Made by a program: the position numbers and the translations under genes. Shown piece by piece: positions 1,814 through 15,824 of a stretch of DNA of 64,000 bases. Source of the stretch: a virus. Lineage: Duplodnaviria > Caudoviricetes. How positions within the stretch are numbered: the first letter of the stretch is position 1; each line of letters starts with the position of its first letter. The stretch lies in the IMG/VR virus record IMGVR_UViG_3300011113_000265, positions 1-64,000 of that record; one strand, written 5' to 3'. The notes below the pieces were generated by a model that had not been told where the DNA came from, did not search any database, and saw nothing but the letters and a program-made list of their open reading frames with translations.

Positions 1814-2170
1814 ATATCAAGTTTTAATAATTAAAATGTAGAAAAGTATTATTTATAGCGCAGTAGGTTATAAAAAATACTGAGGTTAACATAATTACCA
1901 TAAAAGTTTGATATGTAAAATATATATCATTATCAATACATAGCAAATCATTTAGTGTTGTATCTAATAAAATGGTTATTAGTTTTAATGTTAAATAAGT
2001 AGATAAGCTACTTAATAAAAATATAATTAATAGTGTCATATATCAAGTTTTATTAGGTTTAACTAAACCATCTCTAACACATTTAGGAGGTCTTACATCT
2101 TTTGATACTATTCTCATAGCTTCTTGGACTATTAACCAAGTACAAGGTTTTTTCCATATATCAAGTTTTA
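1807..2170. repeat. Three direct copies of CATATATCAAGTTTTA at gene junctions
   Basis: Exact 16-mer at 1811-1826, 2037-2052 and 2155-2170. The first two extend to 20 bp (GTGT prefix). Confidence 0.9.
1824..2039 (-). CDS. Small membrane protein with two hydrophobic segments
   Basis: 71 aa, two hydrophobic stretches, bounded by the 20-bp direct repeats. Confidence 0.55.
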   Translation of the reverse strand: MTLLIIFLLSSLSTYLTLKLITILLDTTLNDLLCIDNDIYFTYQTFMVIMLTSVFFITYCAINNTFLHFNY

Positions 2171-2982: not shown

Positions 2983-3755
2983 AGTTTATTTCTTTTTAAA
3001 TTGTTTAAACCATTTCTTAACATCAAAACCCAATTTAATGGAGATGTATTTCTTACAGCACTTCTATAATCAGATTGCTGTTTTAGTAATATTTTTAATA
3101 CTTCTTCCTCACTATACATTCTTTCTTGTTGCCATTTAGCACCAAATAAAACTCCCTCTCTCCATAGAGTATCATTAACCTCATCGTGATACCCATTTCT
3201 ACGCATTGCTTCTTCAAGTGTTTCTTGTTTAGGTTCTTCTTTCTTACCAATACCAATAGCTGCAATATTTCTTGCAATCTCTAATTTTGTCGATGTTTTA
3301 GGTTCTTCTTTTGGAATGATTATTTTGTAACCTACTTCACATAAATATTGTTTATCATAAGCACCTTTGCTTGGACAATTATCACCATGTTTACAAAAAG
3401 ATTCAACTTCAACCTCCTCACAACTTGGATTCTTTACAAACCATTCTAAAAACTCATCATCAATAGCTTGTACGCCATCTTTGATTAAGTCTGGGTCTGT
3501 TGTTAGGATTATTTTTTTATAAAAACTTAAAGTGTAACCATCATATTTAGAATTATCTTGTTTAAATATTTTATTATTTGAAATATTTAATACCCAATCT
3601 CCTTCTTTAATTTCTTCATCAGAAGTGATGTAGATGTGTTGATTTTCCCAATGAGAACCACTTGTAATTGATTTAGATAATATCAAATTACCCTTTGGTA
3701 TTGTTTTAAGTAATCTGGATGGGTTTTGTGTTGGTAGTATGTGTATGTTTTTCAT
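2979..3755 (-). CDS. Hypothetical modular protein
   Basis: 258 aa; EEPK repeats, CxxxxxC...C segment, YSEEEV module. Confidence 0.75.
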   Translation of the reverse strand: MKNIHILPTQNPSRLLKTIPKGNLILSKSITSGSHWENQHIYITSDEEIKEGDWVLNISNNKIFKQDNSKYDGYTLSFYKKIILTTDPDLIKDGVQAIDDEFLEWFVKNPSCEEVEVESFCKHGDNCPSKGAYDKQYLCEVGYKIIIPKEEPKTSTKLEIARNIAAIGIGKKEEPKQETLEEAMRRNGYHDEVNDTLWREGVLFGAKWQQERMYSEEEVLKILLKQQSDYRSAVRNTSPLNWVLMLRNGLNNLKRNKL

Positions 3756-5915: not shown

Positions 5916-5987
5916 TGTAGTCAGTAAGAGATTCGAACTCTTATTTCCTATCCTACAATAGGATGTTACCAATTACACCAACTGACT
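5916..5987 (-). tRNA. Degenerate tRNA-like element, anticodon not assignable (possibly GTA)
   Basis: Acceptor stem AGTCAGT/ACTGACT; D-arm GTGT-AATTGGTA-ACAT; T-arm AAGAG-TTCGAAT-CTCTT. The anticodon arm CCTAT-TGTAGG-ATAGG has only a 6-nt loop. Confidence 0.6.
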
Positions 5988-7889: not shown

Positions 7890-8114
7890 TTAATAATTAG
7901 ATTTTAATACGTGGTCAATGTAAGTGCCTGCAAATATTGTACCTATGAATGTTGCTACCCAAAATGGAGGACAACATACTGTACAATCTACAATTGTGTA
8001 ATCTGTACCAATAGCTACAAAGAATGCAATTACAAATGGTACTAATGCACCTAAGAATAGGATAGATAGCAATACTACAGTTGCTTCTAATACTTTGTTT
8101 AATAGTGTTTTCAT
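7890..8114 (-). CDS. Small membrane protein with two TM helices
   Basis: Two hydrophobic helices with a CTVCC loop. Confidence 0.65.
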   Translation of the reverse strand: MKTLLNKVLEATVVLLSILFLGALVPFVIAFFVAIGTDYTIVDCTVCCPPFWVATFIGTIFAGTYIDHVLKSNY

Positions 8115-8173
8115 TGTGCTATATGTTTAGATGGTTAGTTTTTGATGGTTGTATGTAGATAGACAGATAGATA

Positions 8174-8191
8174 AAGGGGATTGCTCCCCTT
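8174..8191 (-). terminator. GC-rich hairpin after the 59-aa gene
   Basis: AAGGGGA-GCAA-TCCCCTT on the minus strand. Confidence 0.6.
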
Positions 8192-8195
8192 ATTA

Positions 8196-8375
8196 TTAAG
8201 CCTTCCACTCAATTGCTTTGGCTATTTCGGCAGGTATTGCTAACACCTCACCCTCAACCAATGGCTCTGCCGTTTTAACAAAGGCTTGCAAAATAAATCC
8301 TTGCACTGTCTTTGTAATTAAAGCCCAATTTTGGCCTTTTGAGGTAACGCCAACCTTTAAAATTGTGATTTCCAT
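8196..8375 (-). CDS. 59-aa hypothetical protein, first gene of the leftward block (absent from the ORF track)
   Basis: Translated by hand: MEITILKVGVTSKGQNWALITKTVQGFILQAFVKTAEPLVEGEVLAIPAEIAKAIEWKA*. AT-rich leader and a downstream hairpin. Confidence 0.75.
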   Translation of the reverse strand: MEITILKVGVTSKGQNWALITKTVQGFILQAFVKTAEPLVEGEVLAIPAEIAKAIEWKA

Positions 8376-8486
8376 TTTTTCTTGTTTTAATGGATTAATA
8401 TTATATCCTTACTATCAGGGGGTAAGGTTTCCCGCAATATTTTAGGTGCGTGGGCTAGAGAGAGGAGGTCCTCCCACATATATCCT

Positions 8487-8545
8487 CAAAACAATTTTTA
8501 AAATTTTCTAAAAAATTTTCTAAAAAAATTTTATTTTTTAAATTA
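8487..8545. repeat. Phased A/T-tract array
   Basis: aaaacaatttttaaaattttctaaaaaattttctaaaaaaattttatttttt, period about 10-13 bp. Confidence 0.65.
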
Positions 8546-8588
8546 CATTTAGCTATTTATTGCTTAACATTCTTTAACAATAAATCAC

Positions 8589-8616
8589 TTGACTTTTTAA
8601 TATTATGATATATATT
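8589..8616 (+). promoter_or_regulatory. Candidate rightward promoter
   Basis: TTGACT-N16-TATATT directly upstream of the structured non-coding segment. Confidence 0.4.
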
Positions 8617-8619
8617 GTA

Positions 8620-8925
8620 CACGTATCATAATTAGTAAGGTAATGGCTTACGAATTATACCAGTGAATACTAATAAGTAGGATCTTAGAAGTTGGATAGT
8701 AATCCGCAGCCTTGAGATAATAGGTAAACATAGCAGATGAGGTTTCTCCAATAGGTACACAAGGACTTGAGTAAAGTAAGGTATGGCACTCTAGGGTAAA
8801 AAACAACAGTAGTAGAGATACTCCCCTAATGGTTATGATTGAGTGTGTAGGCTAAAAACGGATACTTGAAATAAAACTTAAGTCTGAATAATTTAAATTA
8901 CTAGGGGTAAGTGTGTCTTATTCTG
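8620..8925 (+). ncRNA. Candidate ~300-nt structured, pseudoknotted RNA
   Basis: No ORF in the track, G-rich, about seven helices found by eye with many G-U pairs (see findings). Confidence 0.55.
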
Positions 8926-8964
8926 AAGTAGTATATAAGAGTATTAATATTCTAACTTAGGGAA

Positions 8965-9348
8965 ATGAAAATAGAAATTAATAATACTCGTGATAAGATT
9001 ATAGAGCAATACTATACTCTTGTTAATCCTTTATTAGGTAAGGATAAATTGGGTCCTGTTGAGATTAAAGTCTTGAGTAAAATGGCTTTAATATATAATA
9101 CGTATCAACATCTAGGAGAAGAAGCTGCAAATCTTCTATTATTCCATACACAAAGTAGAAAACAAATTAGAGAGGCTGTTGCTAAAGACTTACAAAGTGC
9201 TTTTAGTAGGAATAGTCATGAAGCTATTTTATCTCGTCTTAGGAAGAAGAATTTAATTACTAAGAATAAGATATTATATTTACCTCCTATTAAGGATGGT
9301 AAGGTTAGTGTAGATATTAAACTTAATATTGTTAATGTAGATGAGTAA
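8965..9348 (+). CDS. Hypothetical protein, possible winged-helix DNA-binding protein
   Basis: 127 aa; ILSRLRKKNLI helix followed by beta strands. Confidence 0.6.
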   Translation: MKIEINNTRDKIIEQYYTLVNPLLGKDKLGPVEIKVLSKMALIYNTYQHLGEEAANLLLFHTQSRKQIREAVAKDLQSAFSRNSHEAILSRLRKKNLITKNKILYLPPIKDGKVSVDIKLNIVNVDE

Positions 9349-9589
9349 TAAGTTTATTGAGTCTATTATTAAGGAAGTAGCTGAAGAAGAAGGTTTACCT
9401 GAATATGTTGTAGAAGAAATCTACGATTCTCCTTTTAAGTTTATGAAAGAAAATACTAAAAGATTTGCTAGTTGGAAAATATATTTAGTAAATGGATTAG
9501 GTAAGTTTATGCCTTACAATACTATTCTTAATAAGGTTAAGAATGGTGAGCATATTAATAATGTTAAAAAATTAGATTATGAAGAATAA
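9341..9589 (+). CDS. HU/IHF-like DNA-binding protein
   Basis: IIKEVAEEEGLPEYVVEEIYD ... IYLVNGLGKF pattern. Confidence 0.65.
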   Translation: MSNKFIESIIKEVAEEEGLPEYVVEEIYDSPFKFMKENTKRFASWKIYLVNGLGKFMPYNTILNKVKNGEHINNVKKLDYEE

Positions 9590-10004
9590 ATCAATTGATA
9601 TTGATAAGCAAGATAATAAGTTAGTTATATCTGTTTATCCTAAGTTTTATAAAGATGAACAAGTAAATACCGTAACTCCCACTGTAATTACTTTAGATAG
9701 TAATAAGATTAAGGTTACTATGGATTTTGATATTAATATAACTAATAATGAGTACGATGAGATATTAGGTATAGATACTAAGAAAGATGAGAATTATCTT
9801 AATAAAGGTACTTGGATTAGTAAGAAACATTTTGTTACTAATATATCTAGTGTTGTAAATAGACTTGAGTTAGAAAATGATGAAGTTGATTTAGAATACG
9901 TAGTACAAATTACTACTTATGGTAATATAATTAATATTAGAACTAAGAATGAAGAGATACAAGATCAATTATTAACTTTATTAGAAGAGTGGTACAATGA
10001 GTAA
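9579..10004 (+). CDS. Hypothetical protein
   Basis: 141-aa ORF in an overlapping operon. Confidence 0.7.
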   Translation: MKNKSIDIDKQDNKLVISVYPKFYKDEQVNTVTPTVITLDSNKIKVTMDFDINITNNEYDEILGIDTKKDENYLNKGTWISKKHFVTNISSVVNRLELENDEVDLEYVVQITTYGNIINIRTKNEEIQDQLLTLLEEWYNE

Positions 10005-11226: not shown

Positions 11227-13221
11227 ATGCTAATAGGAACTAATCAATTTCTTGAAACTAGACAATTCTTTGAAAAGCATGATATGTATACTAAGGCTTT
11301 ACCTGGTACTTATCAGTATAAAGAGTTTTGGGATGAACAAGTAAAAAGATGTATAGAAGGGTATAAGATAGGTGATCTATATATACCTGGACCATATTAC
11401 TTTTATTTAAACTTCTTTCCAATCCTAGGTAAAGATGAAGTTACTGGTAGAAAGAAAAAAGTATTTTCTAAATTTACTGATGTCGACTTAGAGTATTTTC
11501 TTATATTAGAAGAAGCTAGAAAACAAAAGAAAGGTGTTATTATGACTAAACCTAGACGTACAGGTTTTTCTTATAAGAATGCTGCTGTAGTAGTCCATGA
11601 ATATAACTTCTATAGGGATGCTAAATGTGTTATTGGAGGTTATGAAAAGAAGTATTCTGAAAATACAATGAATATGGCTTTAGAAGGATTAAACTTTCTT
11701 GGTAAGAATACTGTATGGTTTAAACCACGTAATCCTGATACTAAAGAACATGTTATGGCTAGACATCAAAAAGTAATTGATGGCGTACCACAATGGGTAG
11801 GCTATAATTCAGAGATTAGACGTTTAACATTCCAAGATAATCCCTTCTCCTCAATTGGTTTAAGTGCTAACATATTCCTATTTGAAGAAGCTGGTCTATT
11901 TGCTAATATTAAGGAGTCTTATAATATATCTGAACCTACTTGGAAAGATGGTGATGATATGATTGGATTACCTATTTTATTTGGTACAGCTGGTGATATG
12001 GATAAAGGCTCTTTACAGTTCTCTGAGATGTTTTATAATCCTGAAAAGTTTAATCTATTAGCTTTTGATAATATTTGGGATAAAGAAAAGATTGGTACTA
12101 AATGTGGTTGGTTCTTACCTGCTAGTAAACAAAGGTTTGGTAATTATCCTGATCCTAATAACAACAATAAGTTAACTCCTATGATAGATGAAGATGGTAA
12201 CTCTAATCAAGAGTTAGCTACTTTATCTGTACTAAAGAATAGAGAGAGTAAGAAAGGTGATATGAAAGCCTATAGAGATAGTATTACCCAGTACCCTCTT
12301 ACTACCATGGAAGCATTCCTAGTTAGAGGTAATAACATATTTCCTACTGAGTTAGCTCAAGATAGATTAGCTGAGTTAGAATCTAATAAGATAATTACTG
12401 ATTCTTATTGGTCAGCTGATTTAAAACAAACTGAAACTGGTGTAGAATTTAAATTAACTGATAAATTACCTATATCAAAGTTTCCTTTACAAGCTGATGA
12501 TGATAAAGAAGGTTGTATACAAATCTTTGAACAACCGTATACTGATAAACCTGTCCATGGTATGTATATTGCTGGTATTGACCCTTATGATGATGATCAG
12601 TCTAGTACTGATTCATTAGGTAGTATATTTATTATGCATTCCTTAACAAGTAGAATAGTAGCTGAATATACAGGTAGACCACAGACTGCTAAAGAGTTTT
12701 TTGAGATTTGTAGGAAGCTAATGGTATATTATAATGCTGTTGGTAACTATGAAAACAATAAAAAAGGTCTATTTGCTTACTTTGAGCAAAGAAATTGCTT
12801 ACATTTACTCTGTAATACACCTAAAATACTTAAAGATCAACAAATTATTACTATTATAAGAGATTCTGGTAACACTAGTAAAGGTACTAATGCTTCTAAA
12901 GAGGTAAATAAGTACGCTAGACAGCTAATTAGAAGCTATATGCTTGATCAAGCTTACAATAAAGAGGGTGGAATTACAAATACACACACAATTCCTAGTA
13001 TTCCACTACTAAAAGAGATAATTTATTGGAATGAAAATGGTAATTTTGATAGAGTTAGTAGTTTAGGTATGCTTTTAATACTTAAAGAAGACAGGATTAA
13101 ACTAATTGTTGAAGAAGAGGAGGAAGAAGAGGATAAATTTAGGTCTTTTTTTAATAGATATACCAATACAAACAATAGCTATATACCCAGTGGAATAACT
13201 TTTGGACATGAATACCGATAA
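11227..13221 (+). CDS. terL: Terminase large subunit
   Basis: Walker A-like KPRRTGFS, Walker B FLFEEAG, motif III FGTAG, nuclease IAGIDPYD, C-terminal NFDRV. Confidence 0.95.
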   Translation: MLIGTNQFLETRQFFEKHDMYTKALPGTYQYKEFWDEQVKRCIEGYKIGDLYIPGPYYFYLNFFPILGKDEVTGRKKKVFSKFTDVDLEYFLILEEARKQKKGVIMTKPRRTGFSYKNAAVVVHEYNFYRDAKCVIGGYEKKYSENTMNMALEGLNFLGKNTVWFKPRNPDTKEHVMARHQKVIDGVPQWVGYNSEIRRLTFQDNPFSSIGLSANIFLFEEAGLFANIKESYNISEPTWKDGDDMIGLPILFGTAGDMDKGSLQFSEMFYNPEKFNLLAFDNIWDKEKIGTKCGWFLPASKQRFGNYPDPNNNNKLTPMIDEDGNSNQELATLSVLKNRESKKGDMKAYRDSITQYPLTTMEAFLVRGNNIFPTELAQDRLAELESNKIITDSYWSADLKQTETGVEFKLTDKLPISKFPLQADDDKEGCIQIFEQPYTDKPVHGMYIAGIDPYDDDQSSTDSLGSIFIMHSLTSRIVAEYTGRPQTAKEFFEICRKLMVYYNAVGNYENNKKGLFAYFEQRNCLHLLCNTPKILKDQQIITIIRDSGNTSKGTNASKEVNKYARQLIRSYMLDQAYNKEGGITNTHTIPSIPLLKEIIYWNENGNFDRVSSLGMLLILKEDRIKLIVEEEEEEEDKFRSFFNRYTNTNNSYIPSGITFGHEYR

Positions 13222-13253: not shown

Positions 13254-15824
13254 ATGAACAAATTCAACTTAAATATTACTTTTCCTAACCAGAAACTACC
13301 AGAATCATCTAAAAATGAGGAATGGCGTAAGCAAAATGTAGATGCTGCTGAAACTTTGATATTGAATCAAAACCAATATACAAGAAATTCTAGGTATTCT
13401 AAGCTGGTTAACTACGATTTATATGCAGGTAAGCTCCATCCTAGTGATATGGAACTTATTATGAATCCTTTGGGGTTAAAAGATGTACATTTTCCTGCAA
13501 GACCTTTAAATCACTCTATTATTAATCCTTATATTAAGACTTTAATAGGTGAGGAGATTAAAAGAAGGTTTGATTACCATCTTAAAGTTAATAATGAAGA
13601 TGCTATTAGTGAAAAAGAGAAAGCTCAAATACAATCTTATCAACAATTAATTGAGCAAATATTACTTGAAGGTTTAGAACAACCTCAAGAGCAAACTGAA
13701 GAAGCTAAAGCTGCTTTTGAAGCTGAAGTTGAGAAAAGACTTAGACAAAAGAAACAATACATGACCTATGAGTGGCAAGATGTTAGAGAAATTGCTGGTA
13801 CTAGGTTATTAAAATATTATACACAAAAGAATAACTTACCTGATGCCTTTATGAGAGGGTTTGAGGATAGTTTAATTTGTGCTGAAGAAATCTATAGAAT
13901 AGATGTAGAGAACAACGAACCTGTTGTTTATAAATGTAATCCTCTTAATACTTATTTCTTACTACCTCCTAACTCTAATAAAGTAGAGGACTGTGATATT
14001 ATTATTGAGGAGGATTATGTACCTGTTAGTAAGATTATAGATGATTATTATGAGTATCTTAAACCATCTGAAATAGATTGGTTAGGTGAACGTACTATGT
14101 ATAAAGCTAAAGGTACTTACGGTGGACCTGTTAACTACGAGTTACAAGATCCTACCTTTGCAATACCTTTTGGTTTTACTAATAGTATTAATATTAATCA
14201 AGTAAATGTATCTGCTAATAGTTATCTTGCATTTGATTCACAAAACAATGTAAGACGTGTTAAAGTTGTATGGAGAAGTCTTAAGAAAGTAGGTATACTA
14301 TCTTATATAGATGAGTTAGGACAACCTCAAGAAACTTATGTACCTGAAACATATAAGGTAAATAAAGAAGCTGGAGAATCAGTTAAATGGATTTGGATTG
14401 GTGAGTGGTGGGAAGGTACTAAACTTGCTAATGAGATCTATATTAAGATGCAACCTAGACCAATCCAGTTTAGAACTTTAAATAACTTATCTAAATGTGC
14501 TAGTGGATATGTTGGTACTATTTACAAAACTAATAGTTCTCAACCTCAATCTCTATTAGACATTATGAAGTCTTATCAATACTTATATAATGTTATTTAT
14601 CATAGAACTCAATTAGCTTTTGCTAAGAATATTGGTAAAGTAGCTAACTTAGATTTAGCTAAAATGCCTGCTGGTTGGGAACCTGATAAGTGGTTATACT
14701 ATATGAGGGAGATGGGATTAGCTGTAACTGATAGTTTTAATGAAGCTAAGAAAGGAGCTGCTACTGGTAAGTTAGCTGGTAATATGTCTAGTAATCAAGC
14801 TGTGTTAGATTTGGATATGGGTAACTATATTCAACAACATATTGAGATGTTACAATATATTAAAAGTGAACTAGATTTAGTAACTGGTATTACTCCACAA
14901 AGACGTGGACAATATACTTCCGCTGATCAAGGTTTAGGTGTAACTCAAGAAAATAAGTTAGCTAGTAGTAATATTACAGAGTGGTATTATAAAGTACATG
15001 ATAATACTAAAGTTAGAGTATTATCCCACTTACTAGAAACAGCTAAATACTGTTTACGTAATGGTAATAAGAATATCCAATATATAGAGGATGATTATAC
15101 TACTAAGATATATCAAATTGATGGAGAGATTGTAAATGAATCAGAATACGATTTATTTATTAGAGATGCTGTAGAAGATGGACAAGCTATTGAAATGTTA
15201 CGTAGAGCTACAGAAATAGGTTTACAGACTGGTCAAGTTAATATTATCCAATTGATGGATATCTATAGTAATCAATCATTAGCTTCTATTAGAAGAAAGA
15301 TTGAGAGATCTGTAGCTGAAGCACAAGAACAAGCTCAACAAGCTCAAGAAATGCAATTACAACAGCAAAAGGCTATTGAAGATCAAAAAGCTCAAATTGA
15401 AATGGAAAAGCTTAGACTTAAGCAATATGAAATTGATCAAAACAATCAGACTAAAATTGCTATTGCTGAGATGCAAGCTTATGCTATGGATGAAGGATCT
15501 TCTCCAGAGTTAATTGATAGAACTGCAGAATTTGCATTTAAACAACAAGAGATATCTCAAAAAGCATTTAATGAGCAAGAAAAACTTAGACATGCTAAAG
15601 AAGTAAAAGATAAAGAACTTGATCTTAAGCGTAGAGAACTTGAAGAAAGAATGAAAATTGAGAATAAGAAACTAGAGCAAATTGAAGTACAAAATAAAAA
15701 CCAAGAGTACTTAAAAGAGCTTGATGTTAAGATGAAGAAAGAAGAACTTAACGCTAAGAAAGAGATTGAAAAAATAAAACTACAAGCAGCTAAATCTAAA
15801 GCTAGATCTTCAACTAAAAAGTAA
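13254..15824 (+). CDS. Portal protein (crAss-like)
   Basis: 856 aa directly after TerL; GITPQRRG motif and long C-terminal coiled coil. Confidence 0.9.
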   Translation: MNKFNLNITFPNQKLPESSKNEEWRKQNVDAAETLILNQNQYTRNSRYSKLVNYDLYAGKLHPSDMELIMNPLGLKDVHFPARPLNHSIINPYIKTLIGEEIKRRFDYHLKVNNEDAISEKEKAQIQSYQQLIEQILLEGLEQPQEQTEEAKAAFEAEVEKRLRQKKQYMTYEWQDVREIAGTRLLKYYTQKNNLPDAFMRGFEDSLICAEEIYRIDVENNEPVVYKCNPLNTYFLLPPNSNKVEDCDIIIEEDYVPVSKIIDDYYEYLKPSEIDWLGERTMYKAKGTYGGPVNYELQDPTFAIPFGFTNSININQVNVSANSYLAFDSQNNVRRVKVVWRSLKKVGILSYIDELGQPQETYVPETYKVNKEAGESVKWIWIGEWWEGTKLANEIYIKMQPRPIQFRTLNNLSKCASGYVGTIYKTNSSQPQSLLDIMKSYQYLYNVIYHRTQLAFAKNIGKVANLDLAKMPAGWEPDKWLYYMREMGLAVTDSFNEAKKGAATGKLAGNMSSNQAVLDLDMGNYIQQHIEMLQYIKSELDLVTGITPQRRGQYTSADQGLGVTQENKLASSNITEWYYKVHDNTKVRVLSHLLETAKYCLRNGNKNIQYIEDDYTTKIYQIDGEIVNESEYDLFIRDAVEDGQAIEMLRRATEIGLQTGQVNIIQLMDIYSNQSLASIRRKIERSVAEAQEQAQQAQEMQLQQQKAIEDQKAQIEMEKLRLKQYEIDQNNQTKIAIAEMQAYAMDEGSSPELIDRTAEFAFKQQEISQKAFNEQEKLRHAKEVKDKELDLKRRELEERMKIENKKLEQIEVQNKNQEYLKELDVKMKKEELNAKKEIEKIKLQAAKSKARSSTKK

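Follow-up and report, generated by a model that had tools for sequence, protein, structure and literature searches.

What occupies the long gap at which the genes of a crAss-like phage switch strand is the question raised by the first 64,000 nt of the virus record IMGVR_UViG_3300011113_000265 (hereafter the window: the first 64 kb of a 97,017-bp record rated complete; G+C about 29%). Here a set of leftward genes, the first of which starts at 8375, and a rightward block that extends from 8965 to beyond 64000 leave a divergent gap of 590 nt. An initial annotation, made from the letters alone, had placed in this gap a large, plus-strand, structured non-coding RNA (ncRNA) of about 300 nt, lying behind a promoter-like sequence at the head of the virion operon. 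Its central idea was right: at 8623-8922 (+) the window encodes one representative of a large family of structured ncRNAs, not described before, that uncultured crAss-like phages carry. As had been noted, the gap offers little to a coding interpretation on this strand, with no plus-strand open reading frame (ORF) of 30 or more amino acids within 8620-8925. The RNAs of the family are about 240-320 nt long and were found at a minimum of 67 loci (62 distinct sequences) in phages whose large terminases (TerL) are 27-55% identical.

The family was assembled by several kinds of search. Four close relatives hold 8560-8965 almost unaltered, and the DNA to the left of this interval diverges. A DNA profile search gave a 76-nt match in L023, a phage whose TerL is 54-55% identical, and exact-word scans with the shared core reached further lineages in IMG/VR and in metagenomes, one of them with a TerL just 33% identical. 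In an 18-mer scan of metagenomes, 9 of 49 stretches were true relatives; the 38 stretches that the same scan returned from prokaryote genomes all had unrelated flanks and were set aside as matches by chance. For four G+C-richer members we wrote by hand a structure made up of pairs that are canonical in each of them, and from it built a covariance model, R1. R1 brought in five more loci (L017, L018, L020, L021 and L022; E-values 1e-12 to 1e-15) that the DNA profile had missed. These loci, of lineage D, do not have a 29-nt block found in the other lineages and carry a short hairpin instead. The window itself is matched by R1 over 8643-8920 with 68.7 bits (E 2e-17), and in L023 the model aligns the 5' domain only, the 3' domain giving no confident alignment. 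A gapped pattern consisting of both strands of one helix, P2, occurs in no fewer than 119 stretches of IMG/VR; among 80 loci taken from these, R1 matches 59 at E <= 1e-3, and the large contigs tested (5/5) carry a crAss-type TerL, 27-41% identical to that of the window. The fold on which these alignments agree, with the promoter in front of it and the first gene behind it, is as follows in window coordinates.

8589-8616 (+): sigma-70-like promoter TTGACT-16-TATATT, with a predicted transcript start near 8623.
8623-8922 (+): whole structured RNA, ~300 nt; 5' end placed from the promoter, 3' limit from the last conserved helix.
8628-8639/8647-8658 (+): hairpin P0, AUAAUU.GUAAG / CUUAC.AAUUAU, present in the minimum free energy (MFE) fold.
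8660-8661/8680-8681 and 8668-8671/8676-8679 (+): P1 in its window version, CC/GG and UACU/AGUA; a U-A pair is C-G in L078.
8691-8696/8747-8752 (+): P2, GUUGGA/UCCAAU, paired in 60/60 sequences on the unfitted alignment.
8703-8707/8733-8737 (+): P2a, with one C.A mismatch in the window; encloses P2b.
8709-8712/8722-8725 (+): hairpin P2b, whose stem covaries by eye in the unfitted alignment A8.
8713-8721 (+): conserved P2b loop, UGAGAUAAU.
8763-8772/8876-8885 (+): P5, closing the 3' domain; 95.9% paired, every pair changing on both sides; the model pairs the inner 5 bp.
8779-8784/8862-8867 (+): P3; 96.0% paired, every pair changing on both sides; A-U is G-C in L006.
8786-8791/8841-8846 (+): P4, with a long loop; 99.0% paired, every pair changing on both sides.
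8792-8796/8824-8828 (+): P4a, a local helix that can form in the P4 loop.
8848-8861 (+): conserved unpaired motif UAGGCUAAAAACGG, seen in the alignments between P4 and the 3' strand of P3.
8902-8909 (+): conserved G-run UAGGGGUA, candidate pseudoknot partner of CCCCUA at 8823-8828.
8753-8760/8911-8918 (+): P6, a tentative closing helix; G8755.U8916 is G-C in L005, with only partial analogues elsewhere, by inspection.
8965-9348 (+): first downstream ORF, 127 aa, outside the RNA and given for context; homolog only in lineages A and B.

The evidence that carries this fold is covariation. In the model-fitted alignment A7 (67 rows, 62 distinct sequences), 94.9% of the cells are paired as against 66.5% in shuffles, both sides change in 29 of the 33 pairs, and the covariation score is 0.400 against 0.121 in shuffles, none of 500 of which reaches the observed score. 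When the 3' partners were slid by 1-3 columns, pairing fell to 36-52% and the score to 0.03-0.08. A 17-row model-fitted set behaved alike, with 97.2% of cells paired against 72.8%. Since a fitted alignment leans towards its own model, plain MAFFT alignments served as the unfitted control. With 12 distinct sequences, P2 and P2a together were 93.9% paired against 84.7% in shuffles; with 60 distinct sequences (A8), P1 and P2 together were 94.3% paired against 77.8%, with a covariation score of 0.478 against 0.175 (0/500 shuffles) and only 30-55% pairing in the slid controls. In A8 the third pair of P2 is UA in 30 sequences, CG in 20 and UG in 10, and the sixth is AU in 31 and GC in 29; C-A and A-C combinations do not occur at all, though the search pattern permitted every combination. 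Covariation in homologs, which the initial annotation had named among the checks of its proposal, was found on fitted and unfitted alignments alike.

The same is seen helix by helix. P2a is 95.8% paired and all five of its pairs change on both sides; P1 is 88.5% paired across the family with both-sided changes at 6/6 pairs in A8, the register in the window being different from that of the family; and positions of P5 show up to four Watson-Crick pair types. Among the close kin of the window, double changes can be followed in P0 (A-U to G.U to G-C, as GUAAG/CUUAC becomes GUGAG/CUUAC in L006 and GUGAG/CUCAC in L078), in P1 (U-A to C-G), in P5 (C-G to A-U, in L006) and in P3 (A-U to G-C), and inspection of two more distant window-like members, L144 and L185, indicates that P3 and P4 have altered again. 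One contig from an RNA library has A for G at 8780, which would turn a G.U pair of P3 into A-U. In total, compensatory changes preserve pairing in seven helices. Over 15 aligned sequences there are 44 G-U cells and 7 A-C cells, a balance that fits the plus strand only, and the initial annotation had argued for a plus-strand RNA from the many G-U pairs of the single sequence. The structured RNA family is real and apparently new.

These changes also bear on the view that the stretch works as DNA, namely as a replication origin, a packaging site or a long phage-polymerase promoter whose conservation reflects protein-DNA recognition. The stretch does lie at the strand switch, where the cumulative GC skew is lowest, A/T-tract repeats stand nearby at 8490-8545, and a block of 29 nt is shared unchanged by phages whose TerL identity is 33-55%. 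However, GC skew is here confounded with the direction of transcription, lineage D retains the fold without the 29-nt block, the stretch is present in RNA libraries, the maintenance of pairing in seven helices is that of an RNA, and a duplex DNA site would not give rise to the 44 G-U against 7 A-C cells; we consider a DNA element highly improbable. A minus-strand gene for a small protein is harder still to credit. Two ORFs there, 8648-8806 (52 aa) and 8632-8760 (42 aa), overlap the element, and their translations match between lineages by BLASTP, but two different frames both yield such matches, and in an ungapped block of 72 nt the three codon phases take 10, 7 and 7 of the 24 variable columns, with no periodicity. 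At least 25 consecutive nucleotides are invariant, with no synonymous change, at TerL identities of 33-55%, the block is deleted in lineage D, and stops occur in several frames and lineages.

About half of the helices in the fold drawn by the initial annotation were right, and the other half were replaced by others. Its 5' hairpin (8623-8660) is real and lies at 8628-8639/8647-8658, and its 10-bp helix 8763-8772/8876-8885 is P5, which covaries family-wide. The complementarity of its hairpin 8682-8718 is there, but it is not conserved and clashes with P2; its helix 8839-8846/8862-8869 competes with P3 and P4, both of which covary; and the CTCTA/TAGAG helix found no support. The long-range helix 8750-8760/8911-8922 survives in part as P6, thinly supported by the single G.U to G-C change in L005, while its outer three pairs overlap P2. 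For the helix CCCCTA/TAGGGG, by which a pseudoknot had been proposed, the two strands fared differently. GGGG is found in the 110-nt tail of 28 of the 33 members with well-aligned P3 and P5 (2.1 expected), and the G-run is therefore a feature of the family, but CCCC within the P3-enclosed domain is found in only 13 of the 33 well-aligned members (1.9 expected), so that the pseudoknot is not established. Pairing of the G-run with CCCCUA is possible from complementarity, and on our own reading the 3' strand of P2 is a candidate alternative partner.

Two further traits identify the window as a member. At 8687-8754 it carries the family signature AGAAGUYGGRU ... UCYCCRAUAG, in which Y/R and R/Y covary, and it has the nested 3' domain P5 > P3 > P4 with a GGCUAAAAAC-like motif ahead of the 3' strand of P3. 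In the R1 alignment of the window, P5 takes up 8768-8772/8876-8880, P3 8780-8784/8862-8866 and P4 8786-8791/8841-8846. The P2a/P2b region (8703-8737) contains the 29-nt block on which lineages A-C agree letter for letter; lineage D has its short hairpin there, and a variable hairpin region follows the P2 domain before P5. Two similar internal loops were observed, one in P1 (8668-8681 with 8660-8667) and one at the P2/P2a junction (8697-8702 with 8738-8743). In both an AGUA-type strand faces a GAG/GAA-type strand, they recur family-wide, and they presumably resemble loop-E or bulged-G motifs. Some other pairings were tried and given up: AUAG with the sequence before UAUAA was inconsistent between lineages, an early helix "P3b" was shown by the model to be P4 itself, and an uncompensated G to A change in L006, L078 and L084 speaks against pairing of a UAGGCU motif with the core AGCCU.

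Is the element transcribed, and from where? The promoter-like sequence noticed upstream is the sigma-70-like site at 8589-8616. Across the family, an exact TAnnTTTG, which we take to be the -7 element of Bacteroidota promoters, occurs between -70 and +15 of the model start in 32 of the 62 distinct members, mostly at -35 to -10 (0.065 expected per search window); the window has a near match only to this element, together with its sigma-70-like site. A second TAnnTTTG was found 150-250 nt past P2 in 16 cases, where about 4.9 are expected. Parts of 8400-9400 are present in nine public runs, six of them recorded as RNA. When four RNA runs from three studies were compared with 8000-9800, each gave one contig of 151-232 nt, at 8654-8867, 8710-8941, 8646-8812 and 8821-8971, i.e. 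all inside 8646-8971 and over the element. The absence of contig cover on the flanks (8000-8645 and 8972-9800) is unusable as a sign of low flank expression and was disregarded.

The element occurs once in its own 97-kb genome; a search for repeats of it gave nothing beyond A/T matches of low complexity and a weak, promoter-like one at 1914-1959 (-), neither of which we count as a repeat. The latter, a site upstream of leftward genes, shows a 46-nt likeness (72%) to the promoter region of the RNA at 8576-8621, with ..TGATATATATT.TACA in common, and may represent a repeated promoter type of this phage. Upstream of the RNA promoter, at 8490-8545, lie phased A-tract/T-tract direct repeats (AAAATTTTCT units), and similar A/T tracts are seen at the same place in other lineages; these could be bent DNA, an UP-like element or an unwinding region.

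The neighbourhood of the RNA in different genomes speaks to whether it is a gene of its own or the leader of the genes behind it. The next ORF is unrelated between lineages (window/L023, L033, L055/L084 and L093 compared), so that the constant downstream gene family typical of a riboswitch or gene-specific leader was not found among them. In genome G006 the RNA is on the strand opposite to all flanking ORFs and has its own promoter motif, and on our reading of the sequence a putative terminator for the opposite strand stands beside it. In G005 it lies in a 1.4-kb gap in the middle of a one-directional array. G004 (locus L263) and L023 have a promoter ahead of the RNA and an intrinsic terminator behind it. 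G004 is a 101.6-kb phage with terminal repeats, its TerL is 71.7% identical to that of the Cellulophaga crAss-like phage phi14:2, and its RNA gene is at the strand switch; at the same junction phi14:2 still has both the conserved element alongside and the promoter downstream, but no RNA of this kind. The two loci (L263 9800-10200 (-) with RNA, promoter and terminator; phi14:2 L143 11754-12111 (-) without the RNA) form a natural presence/absence pair. In phi14:2, R1 found nothing on 1-50000 and only noise of at most 10.7 bits on 86000-100418, the P2 signature pattern had no matches on the whole record, and BLAST of the family variants found nothing.

An RNA that is optional, free-standing, complex in its fold and transcribed is best explained as an accessory trans-acting factor. 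We think that the RNA is probably an independent gene, whose product would act in trans as a stable folded RNA, and not the leader of the gene behind it. The host-type promoter directly in front would drive the RNA from near 8623. The fold shown by the comparisons has P0, P1 and a P2 domain with either the apical conserved hairpin and loop (the window type) or a short hairpin, and the nested 3' domain P5 > P3 > P4, carrying the conserved unpaired motifs and followed by the conserved G-run, completes the molecule. The folded RNA would then have a partner in the host or the phage, either a protein or a second RNA, to which it binds, and would serve as an accessory host-takeover or counter-defence factor.

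Several findings weigh against this reading or against the structure on which it is built. Alignments A7 and A5 were fitted to the model, which inflates their pairing. The folding energy of the window sequence is no better than that of shuffled controls, an outcome that the initial annotation had listed as refuting its proposal: the plus strand has an MFE of -55.7 kcal/mol where the shuffle mean is -61.9 (z +1.27), and 87 of the 100 shuffled sequences do no worse; for the minus strand z is +0.78. The comparative model, placed on the window sequence, reaches -37.7 kcal/mol, or -43.4 when completed, and the MFE fold is better than it by 12-18 kcal/mol. Single-sequence folding failed because the MFE fold has only 15 of the 66 model pairs in common with the comparative one, and we dropped folding energy as a criterion of structure, having obtained from it no evidence for structure on either strand. 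For the screening of RNAs this is a caution, since a single-sequence energy test would have discarded the element. The RNA-library contigs carry no information on strand, ends, level or timing, and DNA can occur in RNA libraries. Lastly, no partner or target of the RNA was found, and its trans-acting role is one that we infer.

The remaining contrary points are those that favour a cis-acting 5' leader of the rightward (virion) unit, a folded RNA that would act on the polymerase or transcript to which it belongs, for example by processive antitermination over the 55-kb block, and would survive as a stable leader fragment. The RNA stands directly behind a promoter and opens a long run of genes on one strand both in the window and in three of the five other genomes (G004, G007 and G008); the placement at the head of the virion operon made by the initial annotation holds for these and not for the other two inspected, G005 and G006. 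Two of the contigs run past the fold, to 8941 and 8971, as a leader would, the downstream start codon being at 8965. No more than 10 of 59 members have a terminator-like site after the RNA, roughly what the background (0.25 per 400 nt) predicts, and most members are therefore without an evident 3' end signal; in L023, L163 and L182, terminators do lie between the RNA and the next gene, and read-through would need to pass them. On the other hand, the RNA of G006 is antisense to every neighbouring ORF and has nothing downstream to act on, that of G005 sits mid-array, different lineages have unrelated genes downstream, the RNA is often followed by a second promoter motif, and at 240-320 nt with several conserved unpaired motifs it is far larger than the known antiterminator RNAs. 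We regard a leader as possible, although unlikely.

The independent gene that we prefer could also be more than a binding partner. Conceivably it is a self-standing RNA machine of a new class, a ribozyme or the RNA core of a small ribonucleoprotein, which crAss-like phages of Bacteroidota would use as an optional weapon against a conserved host defence, transcription or translation system. Active sites or docking elements would in that case be formed by the many unpaired nucleotides that do not vary, by the two similar internal loops rich in purines and by the G-run, which could pair either with the P4 loop or with the 3' strand of P2 and so act as a conformational switch; we give this idea a rather small chance. 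A conserved folded RNA without a phage function, be it a remnant or a selfish element moving from phage to phage, would account for the patchy presence (in G004 and not in phi14:2) and for the varying position and orientation. But there is a single copy per genome, neither flanking repeats nor an associated mobility gene were seen in the loci read, and purifying selection has acted on the pairing across TerL identities of 27-55%, so that we find this explanation very unlikely.

Some further features of these loci were observed. In the window, a crAss-type TerL at 11227-13221 and a portal gene at 13254-15824 are followed by giant ORFs further downstream; among 50,697 GenBank phage records the TerL finds no match above about 36% identity, the best being crAss-like phages, and BLAST of the gap and five family variants against these same records gave no match. 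A second conserved non-coding element, at 8415-8475, adjoins the start of the leftward genes and consists of a GGGG..CCCC hairpin and then a G-rich block. It is also present at L023 ~3630-3700, L033 ~712-775, L263 10500-10560 (-) and phi14:2 L143 ~12000-12060 (-), the last being a genome without the RNA.

Two tiny conserved ORFs often lie just upstream of the RNA (L033 831-959 and 1001-1126, L055 1288-1395, L084 1303-1425, and also in L147, L153, L200, L183, L216 and L217). One encodes a basic 43-aa peptide ending in ..YRGQGR and the other an acidic 42-aa peptide ending in ..C-E-N-C-G-S with an earlier Cys, and the C-terminal motif of the latter directly precedes the RNA in L166, L167, L169, L178, L198 and L201. 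They belong to no Pfam or PHROG family and are absent from the genome of the window; both peptides are possible partners of the RNA. In lineage D (L021 ~3240-3320; L017, L018, L020), a direct repeat of some 20 nt (..TATAACTTTACTTTT..) occurs twice between the RNA and the next ORF, and similar TTAC(C/T)TTTAC words follow the RNA in L033 and L055. The window also has a tRNA gene at 5917-5987 (-), scored at 45.3 bits by Rfam, to which ARAGORN assigns no identity and a two-base 'anticodon (ta)', the anticodon loop being apparently one base short.

Among the viruses of Bacteroidota, crAss-like phages rank with the most abundant, and what is known of their takeover of the host is nearly all about proteins. 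What looks like a long 'empty' stretch where these genomes switch strand is probably a gene. The RNA family is widespread and its fold has the support of covariation; together with a signature for searches, a calibrated covariance model and a natural presence/absence pair that includes the cultured phi14:2, this makes the role of large phage RNAs directly testable in a Bacteroidota system.

How, then, does the family compare with RNAs already described? Rfam 15 (4227 models), at the gathering threshold, matches the window only at the tRNA (5918-5987); its models cover tmRNA, RNase P RNA, 6S, group I and II introns, riboswitches, GOLLD, ROOL, HEARO, OLE, raiA and phi29 pRNA. With the threshold relaxed to E <= 10, window 8350-9000 gave four chance-level matches, all far below gathering, and nothing was matched on the element in L033, L055, L093 and L084 at E <= 5 or in L018 and L139 at E <= 1. 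The inability of the initial annotation to match the element to tmRNA, RNase P RNA or an intron is thereby confirmed for the window and these relatives. Literature searches on structured or non-coding RNA in crAss-like phages (Crassvirales) found none such beyond two unexplained and unrelated long ncRNAs of phi14:2, and in a paper on UG/Abi reverse transcriptases Crassvirales appear just for phage classification. According to the phi14:2 study, these RNAs arise from the g004-g005 and g005-g006 intergenic regions, are abundant and are of unknown function; host-polymerase promoters drive the non-early genes of that phage, and its middle promoters resemble -35/-10 elements and are used by host-type polymerase (bioRxiv 10.1101/2020.03.07.982082). 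As described there, they resemble our family in being non-coding transcripts of long intergenic regions in a crAss-like phage of a Bacteroidota host; unlike it, they come from an early-region locus, 4-6 kb from the strand switch, and they have no likeness to it in sequence or structure by R1 (on 1-50000 and 86000-100418), the P2 pattern (on the whole record) or BLAST of the five family variants.

Among better-known RNAs, 6S and other protein-sequestering RNAs are abundant, stable and trans-acting and bind a central host machine. A stable, folded RNA that acts in trans is what we infer for the window as well, but 6S is a single long interrupted hairpin with a central bubble, whereas the window fold is branched, with three domains, and has no match to the Rfam models. 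The processive antitermination RNAs put (phage HK022) and EAR (Bacillus) lie behind the promoter at the head of a long operon and fold during transcription. The family shares this position in the window, G004, G007 and G008, is atypical in G005 and differs in G006, where the RNA is antisense to its neighbours; the window RNA is moreover much larger and more complex, and again no Rfam model matches it. GOLLD, ROOL, OLE, HEARO and raiA have long multi-domain folds with many conserved unpaired nucleotides, are linked to phages or prophages, and were found comparatively, their function being unknown. Their Rfam models miss the window and its relatives from four lineages even at E-values up to 1-10, and the family is smaller (~240-320 nt) and so far confined to contigs of crAss-like phages. 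Nevertheless, it has in common with these RNAs a long, multi-domain, phage-carried fold with conserved unpaired nucleotides that came to light through comparative analysis.

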